DNA of 64,000 bases from Escherichia coli (GTDB lineage: Bacteria; Pseudomonadota; Gammaproteobacteria; Enterobacterales; Enterobacteriaceae), in NCBI RefSeq assembly GCF_003334315.1, contig NZ_QOWR01000002.1. The stretch is one strand, 5' to 3'. Position 1 is the stretch's first letter, and every line of letters starts with the position of its first letter. The position numbers were made by a program, and so were the translations under genes. Below, one piece after another: positions 46,990 to 47,618 of this stretch. The notes beneath the pieces were generated by a model. It had not been told where the DNA came from. It did not search any database and worked only from the letters and a program-made list of their open reading frames with translations.

Positions 46990-47241
46990 CGCCGGAACGG
47001 TTTATTACGTACATCAGGTAAAACTGACCGATAAGCCGCTTTCTTTTGGGTATAGTGTCGTGGACAGTCATTCATCTTTCTGCCCCTCCAAAAGCAAAAA
47101 CCCGCCGAAGCGGGTTTTTACGTAAACCAGGTGAAACTGACCGATAAGCCGCTTTCTTTTGGGTATAGCGTCGTGGACAGTCATTCATCTTTCTGCCCCT
47201 CCAAAAGCAAAAACCCGCCGAAGCGGGTTTTTACGTAAATC
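46990..47241 (-). repeat. Tandem repeats (about 113-116 bp) duplicating the 3' end of rnpB plus its terminator
   Basis: Seen directly: caggt(a/g)aaactgaccgataagccg...gtcgtggacagtcattcatct...aaaaacccgccgaagcgggttttt repeated at about 47012, 47128 and 47241; consistent with what I recall as repeated sequences 3' of the RNase P RNA gene. Confidence 0.85.
47201..47232 (-). terminator. rnpB rho-independent terminator (first of the repeated copies)
   Basis: On the minus strand aaaaacccgc-ttcg-gcgggttttt followed by gcttttgg; a second copy lies about 113 bp further downstream. Confidence 0.8.
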
Positions 47242-47618
47242 AGGTGAAACTGACCGATAAGCCGGGTTCTGTCGTGGACAGTCATTCATCTAGGCCAGCA
47301 ATCGCTCACTGGCTCAAGCAGCCTACCCGGGTTCAGTACGGGCCGTACCTTATGAACCCCTATTTGGCCTTGCTCCGGGTGGAGTTTACCGTGCCACGGA
47401 CTGTTACCAGCCGCGCGGTGCGCTCTTACCGCACCCTTTCACCCTTACCTGATCCCGCTTGCGCGGGCCATCGGCGGTTTGCTCTCTGTTGCACTGGTCG
47501 TGGGTTTCCCCCCCAGGCGTTACCTGGCACCCTGCCCTATGGAGCCCGGACTTTCCTCCCCTCCGCCCGTCTCCCCCGAAGAGGACGACGACGAAGCGGC
47601 GACTGTCTGGTCAGCTTC
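47242..47618 (-). ncRNA. rnpB: RNase P RNA component (M1 RNA), 377 nt
   Basis: The reverse complement matches the M1 RNA sequence as I recall it, from 5' GAAGCUGACCAGACAGUCGCCGCUUCG... to ...CGGUCAGUUUCACCU 3', including GGAAAGUCCGGGCUCCAUAGGGCAGGGUGCCAGGUAACGCC. Confidence 0.95.

Follow-up and report, generated by a model that had tools for sequence, protein, structure and literature searches.

What are the short repeats that stand head to tail behind the ribonuclease P (RNase P) RNA gene rnpB of Escherichia coli, and what could keep them there? The question is raised by a 64,000-nt stretch of E. coli contig NZ_QOWR01000002.1 (RefSeq assembly GCF_003334315.1), referred to below as the window, for which a reading made from the letters alone (the sequence-only reading) had proposed, at 46990–47618, rnpB with its own 3′ end and terminator duplicated in tandem behind it. 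We consider it probable that the locus holds the classical rnpB 3′-flank array of head-to-tail 113-nt pseudo-3′ ends, whose units serve as resizable, two-way back-up terminators and also multiply the core sequence at which genomic islands attach; a selected function for the array is what we infer. Because rnpB lies on the minus strand, ‘downstream’ of the gene means lower coordinates. On that strand the elements follow one another in the order rnpB, its trailer with terminator T1, unit 1, unit 2, an inverted pair of repetitive extragenic palindromic (REP) elements, a decayed distal copy and the stop codon of the convergent gene yhaC:

47242–47618, minus strand: rnpB, mature M1 RNA (RNase P RNA, class A), 377 nt, from Rfam RF00010 and the RefSeq annotation of an identical locus.
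47190–47290, minus strand: ‘copy 0’, the 101-nt template of the units, made up of the last 49 nt of M1 RNA, trailer, T1 and a 22-nt spacer, from alignment to unit 1 and the offset of 101.
47205–47241, minus strand: precursor 3′ trailer and terminator T1, with hairpin AAAAACCCGCTTCGGCGGGTTTTT at 47232–47209, from folding.
47077–47189, minus strand: unit 1, 113 nt, from Tandem Repeats Finder, alignment and folding.
47189–47170, 47169–47158 and 47157–47151, minus strand: left block, insertion GCTATACCCAAA and AGAAAGC of unit 1.
47150–47137, minus strand: right block GGCTTATCGGTCAG of unit 1, followed by a trailer and the intact terminator T2 at 47119–47096.
46985–47076, minus strand: unit 2, 92 nt of homology with the architecture of unit 1 and a decayed terminator, ATAAACCGTTCCGGCGGGTTTCAG, from alignment and folding.
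46861–46889 and 46925–46958, unstranded: inverted REP pair past unit 2, from alignment.
46777–46836, minus strand: decayed distal copy with a broken terminator (AAACCCGCGTCAGTGAGTTTTT), a spacer (TGCTTTTGG) and a partial left block (GATGAATAAATATCTACG), from alignment.

The gene itself is a full-length minus-strand match to RF00010 (318.6 bits against a gathering score of 100; model positions 1–367 of 367), and its own tail (47290–47190) is identical to unit 1 (47189–47077) at 98 of 101 positions, with one 12-nt gap. Unit 1 and unit 2 (47076–46985) agree at 95 of 112 positions, which has a chance probability of about 1e-30 for the whole window. Consistent with these alignments, Tandem Repeats Finder delimited a repeat at 46985–47264 with a period of 113, 2.5 copies, 94% matches and a score of 504. 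Furthermore, self-comparison of 46750–47650 found 103 shared 10-mers at offset 113, against a maximum of 3 at any offset in 200 shuffles, and the lesser peaks at offsets 101, 214, 226, 281 and 394 are those predicted from the layout of the array. The sequence-only reading of the locus is supported: rnpB is indeed followed in tandem by its own 3′ end and terminator, the periodicity it expected from self-comparison is seen, and its estimate that roughly the last 50 nt of rnpB are copied agrees with the 49 nt of M1 RNA aligned in each unit. Its degenerate copy and REP element at 46795–46960 correspond to the decayed distal copy (46836–46777) and the REP pair. Apart from the sense of ‘downstream’ and the fact that the units are altered copies, two details had to be amended. 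The period, given as about 113–116 bp, is exactly 113 here, and of the terminator hairpins assigned to both extra copies that of unit 1 stands, whereas that of unit 2 has decayed.

The array itself is already known, judging from earlier descriptions and from the match to strain K-12. Reed et al. in 1982 and Reed and Altman in 1983 reportedly described ‘3.5 repeats of 113 bp’ in the rnpB 3′ flank of E. coli K-12, and we take the array in the window to be the same one. The K-12 locus is collinear with the window: the flanks are the same and the units align one for one, the window having one unit fewer. Indeed, the spacer between yhaC and rnpB measures 613 nt in K-12 versus 500 nt here, which makes exactly one 113-nt unit more in K-12. 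The sequence-only reading had treated the array as a described feature and not as a novelty, and the matching K-12 array agrees with that view.

The units are altered copies of the end of the gene. Where the gene reads GATGAATGACTGTCCACGAC-AGAACCC-GGCTTATCGGTCAGTTTCACC, the unit reads GATGAATGACTGTCCACGAC-GCTATACCCAAA-AGAAAGC-GGCTTATCGGTCAGTTTCACC; it thus carries a 12-nt insertion, GCTATACCCAAA or ACTATACCCAAA, and two substitutions that turn AGAACCC into AGAAAGC. The insertion-specific stretch of the units is GCTATACCCAAAAGAAAGC, and a purine tract, AAAAGAAAG, is present in each unit. According to the Rfam structure line, the insertion and the CC-to-AG change map to J2/4 and to the P4 3′-strand region of M1 RNA. 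On this evidence a unit retains the P2 and P1 3′ strands but P4 cannot form; since the P4 3′ strand is lost through the insertion and the CC-to-AG change, a unit is unable to complete a ribozyme. When the units alone were compared with Rfam, no RNase P match was obtained even at E ≤ 10, and with no match at such permissive thresholds the units are not RNase P RNAs. Other known RNA families gave no Rfam match either, the sub-threshold hits coming from the terminator hairpin or from REPs.

T1 (47232–47209) and T2 of unit 1 (47119–47096) have exactly the same hairpin, AAAAACCCGCTTCGGCGGGTTTTT, which folds at −19.4 kcal/mol in each case and at −15.7 kcal/mol on the opposite strand. Because these identical, strong hairpins are flanked by A5 and T5, both have the form of a terminator in both directions. 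They were folded directly, since a simple terminator scanner misses them because their A and T tracts pair. The terminator of unit 2 folds at −5.0 kcal/mol and its U tract is gone; in terms of sequence form, an intrinsic terminator is present in T1 and T2 and absent in T3 and T4, those of unit 2 and of the distal copy. The terminator of the last K-12 unit has decayed likewise. Among the species loci listed, T1 is intact in 43 of 43 cases, the terminators of internal units in 32 of 35 and those of last units in 30 of 43. Two terminator types occur at the rnpB flank, one with a TTCG tetraloop and one with a loop 7–8 nt longer. Both are common to E. coli (L003, L006, L007 and L037), Salmonella (L129) and cryptic Escherichia, with counterparts in other genera, and both are interleaved in a single Salmonella array. 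The exact 24-nt hairpin AAAAACCCGCTTCGGCGGGTTTTT is also found in about 40 large myovirus genomes (about 145–150 kb; phi92 is one of them), as well as in records deposited as Campylobacter phages, where it probably reflects convergent use of a simple strong terminator.

How stable is the number of units? Across 5,426 complete E. coli genomes it ranges from 0 to 8, so that copy number, which the sequence-only reading had wished to see compared across strains, does vary. A 69-mer specific to the unit was found at 8,532 places in 3,897 of these genomes (1 to 8 per genome, median 2); the plasmids of these genomes had none. Representative alleles with 0, 1, 2 and 3 units differ by whole units, some of them having the longer-loop terminator, and the units inside one genome are near-identical. 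Unequal homologous recombination with concerted evolution predicts just such a pattern: changes by whole units, units of one genome that are nearly identical, and spacers and trailers matching those of the local T1 region. Zero-unit strains (L004 and L008) retain the decayed distal copy, which suggests that the zero-unit state arose via loss. Assemblies and typing schemes that cross the rnpB flank should expect length steps of 113 nt, or of 120 nt with the longer terminator type.

Units are not confined to E. coli. Other species were covered by a scan of species-representative genomes in which an exact rnpB 3′ 41-mer was required; it gave at least 120 loci, and units were counted in the 105 with at least 400 nt of downstream sequence. 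One to four extra units are present in 39 of the 105 species loci listed, in Enterobacteriaceae (Escherichia, Citrobacter, Enterobacter, Cedecea, Kosakonia, Lelliottia, Atlantibacter, Phytobacter, Superficieibacter, Buttiauxella and Pluralibacter) and in Erwiniaceae (Pantoea, Erwinia, Winslowiella and Izhakiella). Yokenella also has a unit, its locus falling under the 400-nt cut-off, and there are six units in Salmonella Senftenberg and two in Klebsiella pneumoniae. In 54 of 55 distinct units the insertion lies at one place and is accompanied by the identical P4-strand change; from such sequence comparisons, the unit is old or horizontally spread. The lone insertion-free unit, in Atlantibacter sp. 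RC6 (L085, about 98–200 nt past the rnpB anchor, GACAGAACCCGCCTTATCGG), has either arisen by recent duplication or been converted by rnpB. Three units in a Pantoea metagenome-assembled genome (L030, 100–480 nt past the rnpB anchor) have a diverged left block, GACAACTCTCCTC, and two broken terminators, and represent a decaying array.

Conservation within the unit is uneven. Between species, AATGACTGTCCAC averages 98% pairwise identity, GGCTTATCGGTCAG 93%, AGAAMGC 86% and the insertion 60%, and the trailers and spacers of units can barely be aligned. The gene rnpB itself differs in AATGACTGTCCAC in lineages such as Yersinia, Serratia and Proteus. Conservation of the left block is not a matter of ascertainment alone, because 29 of the 30 arrays found via local T1-region recurrence alone, that is, without using the left block, retain it. 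Selection, conversion from rnpB and recent transfer are each candidates for what keeps the rnpB-derived blocks constant. The 0–8 copy polymorphism, the spread from Escherichia and Salmonella to Pantoea and Erwinia, and the island core in each unit are points not found in the searchable literature.

This last point gives the array a second aspect. Every unit repeats CTTATCGGTCAG, the direct repeat that bounds integrase-bearing islands at rnpB, and a search for the attachment core gave 3 matches in the window, with 0 expected:

47244–47263, minus strand: island attachment core in rnpB, GGCTTATCGGTCAGTTTCAC.
47131–47150, minus strand: further core copy in unit 1, from the same search.
47018–47037, minus strand: further core copy in unit 2, from the same search.

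Since each unit carries CTTATCGGTCAG, the array multiplies the attachment site, here to three empty copies. A distant core copy that would mark an old island boundary was looked for elsewhere in the 64-kb window, and none was found. This sequence is assigned the role of attachment site because, in other strains and species, inserts with an integrase gene are bounded on either side by a direct repeat of it; the core common to both island ends is CTTATCGGTCAG with few flanking bases, which is the unit right block. An integrase gene lies directly 3′ of rnpB in 34 of the 5,426 complete E. coli genomes. The islands of strains H7 and YZ22PE67 have ...CCGGCTTATCGGTCAG... in rnpB and ...CCGCCTTATCGGTCAG... 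at the far end, and the native trailer, the terminator and the units come after the far-end core copy. The H7 insert (L137, 19656–29720) carries genes for an integrase of 486 aa, a YagK/YfjJ protein, an invertase, a flagellin of the FliC/FljB family and a flagellin repressor, and ends in ...GAACGAAGCC-GCCTTATCGGTCAG-TTTCACC, which is followed by the native trailer, the terminator and two units; it matches the published flk genomic islet (PMC3378880). The island of YZ22PE67 (L139, 15656–24300) has other cargo, including a primase-helicase, and ends in the same way as that of H7.

Comparable insertions were encountered outside E. coli. At nine of the species loci listed, rnpB is without T1 and ...GGTCAGCTTCAAC passes directly into a conserved sequence, TTCTTCTAAAACAATACGTTGGTGTG.... 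In Citrobacter amalonaticus TTCTTCTAAAACAATACGTTGGTGTG leads to a split gene, in relatives of which DUF3258 and the phage-integrase domain PF00589 are found, and in Buttiauxella sp. B2 a second copy, AACCCGGCTTATCGGTCAGCTTCAAC, with trailer and terminator, lies 5 kb downstream. In Cedecea sulfonylureivorans the island-end sequence comes after the last unit's core, and 3 kb beyond it lie the displaced core and terminator. Islands are placed in the last unit at L011, L038 and L043; in L011 and L038 this unit leads into the conserved island-end sequence. By contrast, far-downstream core matches at two Kosakonia loci (L105 and L117) are followed by no rnpB-like trailer and were therefore put down to chance.

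The islands themselves have several features in common. In island-bearing strains (L137, L139, L122, L043, L064 and L132) the island replaces the native trailer and T1 of rnpB. The rnpB-side island end is a conserved sequence of about 100–150 nt with a long imperfect hairpin (ACGTTGGTGTG...CACACCAACG) and falls into two subtypes; it is found at L132 2545–2660 and also at L023, L034, L038, L043, L048, L064, L087 and L118. In island-bearing strains it comes directly after the M1 3′ strand, with no canonical terminator. Island cargo in other genera includes PAAR or type VI secretion system (T6SS) effector-like genes.

How, then, might the array work? In the reading that we favor, unequal homologous recombination between units would resize the array, and T2 would catch RNA polymerase escaping T1, yielding an RNA of about 527 nt versus about 414 nt at T1. 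From the other side, T2 and T1 would stop transcription arriving from yhaC ahead of antisense passage through rnpB. A read-through RNA would have a defective tail next to the M1 trailer used by RNase E, and would probably be degraded and not matured; RNase E acts in M1 maturation (PMC11251521). Several observations weigh against this reading. A full unit is absent from 28% of complete E. coli genomes and from 66 of the 105 species loci listed, so the array is dispensable. Back-up termination leaves unexplained why, in a comparison that spans two families of bacteria, the 13-nt left block AATGACTGTCCAC stands at 98% identity versus 60% for the adjoining insertion. Moreover, in the three E. coli strains whose islands were examined, insertion had taken place at the core of rnpB itself and not at one in a unit. 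Finally, T2 use and the fate proposed for the read-through RNA are drawn from work reported by the Altman and Lee laboratories.

Part of this evidence would fit an array of no benefit at all, an account to which we give a rather low probability: one ancient tail duplication with the 12-nt insertion would have drifted by unequal crossing-over while being homogenised by concerted evolution and by rnpB gene conversion. The array is often absent, last units are often truncated or decayed, and in the Pantoea genome L030 the whole array is decaying. Moreover, the trailer, terminator and spacer of a unit match the T1 region of their own species, as concerted evolution predicts, and GAC/TCC variation beside the left block could stem from rnpB conversion. 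However, the left block shares 20 nt with rnpB and has unrelated sequence on both sides, which is short for recombination-dependent conversion. Conversion should also often erase the insertion, yet just 1 of 55 distinct units (L085) is without it, and the E. coli partial copy, which is not homogenised, has lost 5 of 19 left-block positions whereas live units have lost none. The islands suggest another history, in which the units are relics of island integrations at rnpB, or spare attachment sites kept by the host that divert islands from the essential gene; this we hold to be possible but doubtful. Horizontal island movement would account for the patchy wide distribution, the high conservation and the terminator types shared across genera: TTCG-loop and long-loop terminators recur in E. 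coli, Salmonella, Citrobacter, Enterobacter, Kosakonia and Cedecea, and are interleaved in one Salmonella array. Indeed, the E. coli far-end junction is laid out as a unit, with a diverged rnpB-like arm (GATGCCTRACGTATKGTYGAACGAAGCC), core, native trailer and terminator; islands lie in a unit core at L011, L038 and L043; and the DNA past the array differs by genus, including PAAR or T6SS effector-like genes and prophage. Nevertheless, none of the islands found has a far-end arm equal to the unit left block plus insertion, the units are contiguous with a strict period, as simple unequal crossing-over explains, and precise excision is scarless, so that an extra deletion step must be assumed. Nor did viral sequences supply a source: a scan for the unit pattern gave 0 matches in viral contigs, and the matches in phage collections were the 24-nt hairpin alone or host DNA. 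A plasmid origin was rejected as well, the ‘plasmid’ matches being chromosome pieces filed as plasmids. Several PLSDB ‘plasmids’ with garK-rnpB are such chromosome pieces, among them a 5.37-Mb Klebsiella record and a 90-kb Enterobacter chimera in which prophage genes are joined to core genes. Host DNA is also the probable content of two ‘Salmonella phage S.Kent’ records of 2.5 kb (OR851195 and OR851156), since these unannotated entries contain rnpB-flank units.

A function of the unit as RNA appears unlikely. Unit RNA, from read-through or processing, would pair with the M1 P1/P2 5′ strands, bind C5 or Hfq, or act as a 3′-flank small RNA, in each case tuning RNase P biogenesis. Conservation across Enterobacteriaceae and Erwiniaceae (left core 98% and right block 93% versus 60% for the insertion) would suit such a role, as would the retention of the left block in 29 of 30 arrays detected without it and the form of each unit, which ends in a hairpin with a U tail and has the purine tract AAAAGAAAG inside. 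Yet a sigma-70-like scan found no promoter within the units on either strand, the units have no Rfam family, and the array is missing from many strains. Folding gave little more. For the unit core RNAalifold gave only one consensus hairpin, a weak one (−4.2 kcal/mol) with compensatory change in 0 of 9 pairs, and a hairpin between the spacer and the P2-like strand of the left block averages a best helix of 4.87 pairs over the 46 species listed versus 4.53 in shuffled sequences; both candidates were rejected. It is more improbable still, and by a wide margin so, that the units encode small proteins. The 1983 work is said to have pointed out reading frames in the rnpB repeats, and an E. coli unit does have a frame preceded by GGAGG and 9 nt that runs from ATG for 38 codons, its stop overlapping the ATG of the following unit; such frames lie on the minus strand at 47188–47072 and 47075–46974, with equivalents in K-12. 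Among relatives, however, neither the reading frame nor the start codon (the ATG of GATGAAT) is kept. The frame has 9 codons in the units of many species, with its stop within the insertion, the units of seven species are without the ATG, and the frame differs in Klebsiella and Yokenella, so the 38-codon frame is not a conserved gene; in addition, the ribosome-binding site is inconsistent and translation would have to cross the terminator hairpin.

We give a rather low probability to the stronger proposal that the units are a conserved Enterobacterales module multiplying the attachment core of rnpB-targeting islands, either as integration scars or as spare landing pads. If it is true, landing pads would let islands such as flk integrate while an essential ribozyme gene keeps its own 3′ end and terminator, and repeats unexplained since 1983 would receive their first functional and evolutionary rationale. 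If the link between core and islands is causal, the locus offers a testable case of an essential RNA gene coexisting with elements that dock there; one of these, the rnpB-targeting islet flk, drives one-way flagellar phase variation. A short follow-up is warranted by how widely the unit is conserved and by its overlap with the island attachment core.

The annotated order in E. coli strain 13P484A, whose sequence is 100% identical to the rnpB-array region over 621 nt, is that of K-12: garK, rnpB and convergent yhaC. The neighboring features in the window are the following:

47626–47654, minus strand: rnpB promoter-like site GTGACA-17 nt-TATACT, its second hexamer ending 8 nt ahead of the M1 RNA 5′ end.
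47651–48796, minus strand: garK (glycerate 2-kinase), upstream of rnpB on the same strand, coordinates carried over from the identical locus L002.
45554–46741, plus strand: yhaC, convergent neighbor, a 395-aa open reading frame (ORF), from the ORF list and the RefSeq annotation of an identical locus.

The site GTGACA-17 nt-TATACT is the sole sigma-70-like one around the array, and 35 nt separate the yhaC stop codon (46741) from the end of the decayed distal copy. The two inverted copies at 46861–46958 fit REP elements, or a bacterial interspersed mosaic element (BIME), that is, dispersed inverted imperfect palindromes of about 35 nt, and matched the REP-derived Rfam families ES036 and naRNA4 below threshold. 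Among the matches listed, a query containing the REP has a median of 36 places per E. coli genome, as against 1–8 for the unit-specific query. In E. coli SA31-1 a copy of IS621 (IS110 family) sits within a REP of the rnpB-yhaC spacer (L006, 415–1395), where it splits GGCGTAG|GCCTGATAAG. The pair yhaB-yhaC is missing in some E. coli, for example AGR4587 (L008), and the rnpB flank then adjoins tdcR, and yhaB is annotated as a frameshifted pseudogene in a genome identical to the window across the array (L002, 1–333).

Finally, the array can be set beside systems already described. The closest is the set of 113-bp repeats of K-12, with which it shares position, strand, the 113-nt period, M1 3′ sequence with a rho-independent terminator, and a distal partial copy. 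The difference is one of number, 2 full units here versus 3 in K-12, and unit 2 of the window is the last, decayed unit of K-12. The flk islet of E. coli H3, H35, H36, H47 and H53 strains (Feng et al. 2008, cited in PMC3378880) is excised by the tyrosine recombinase Orf486 via its direct repeats (PMC3378880). Its direct repeat is the rnpB right block present in every unit, and in strain H7 the islet stands between rnpB and the units, whereas the window is free of the islet and has the three core copies only. Islands in the 3′ ends of tRNA and tmRNA genes likewise target an essential small-RNA gene with a crossover in its 3′ part, the island supplying a replacement 3′ end and a partial copy remaining at the far end; the rnpB units differ in being tandem, with no island DNA between them, and in sharing a 12-nt insertion that is absent from the gene. 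As for tandem or bidirectional intrinsic terminators between convergent genes, the array resembles them in its A/T-flanked GC hairpins between convergent rnpB and yhaC, T1 being the same as T2, but here the second terminator comes as part of a copied upstream-gene tail, and strains differ in how many terminators they have.

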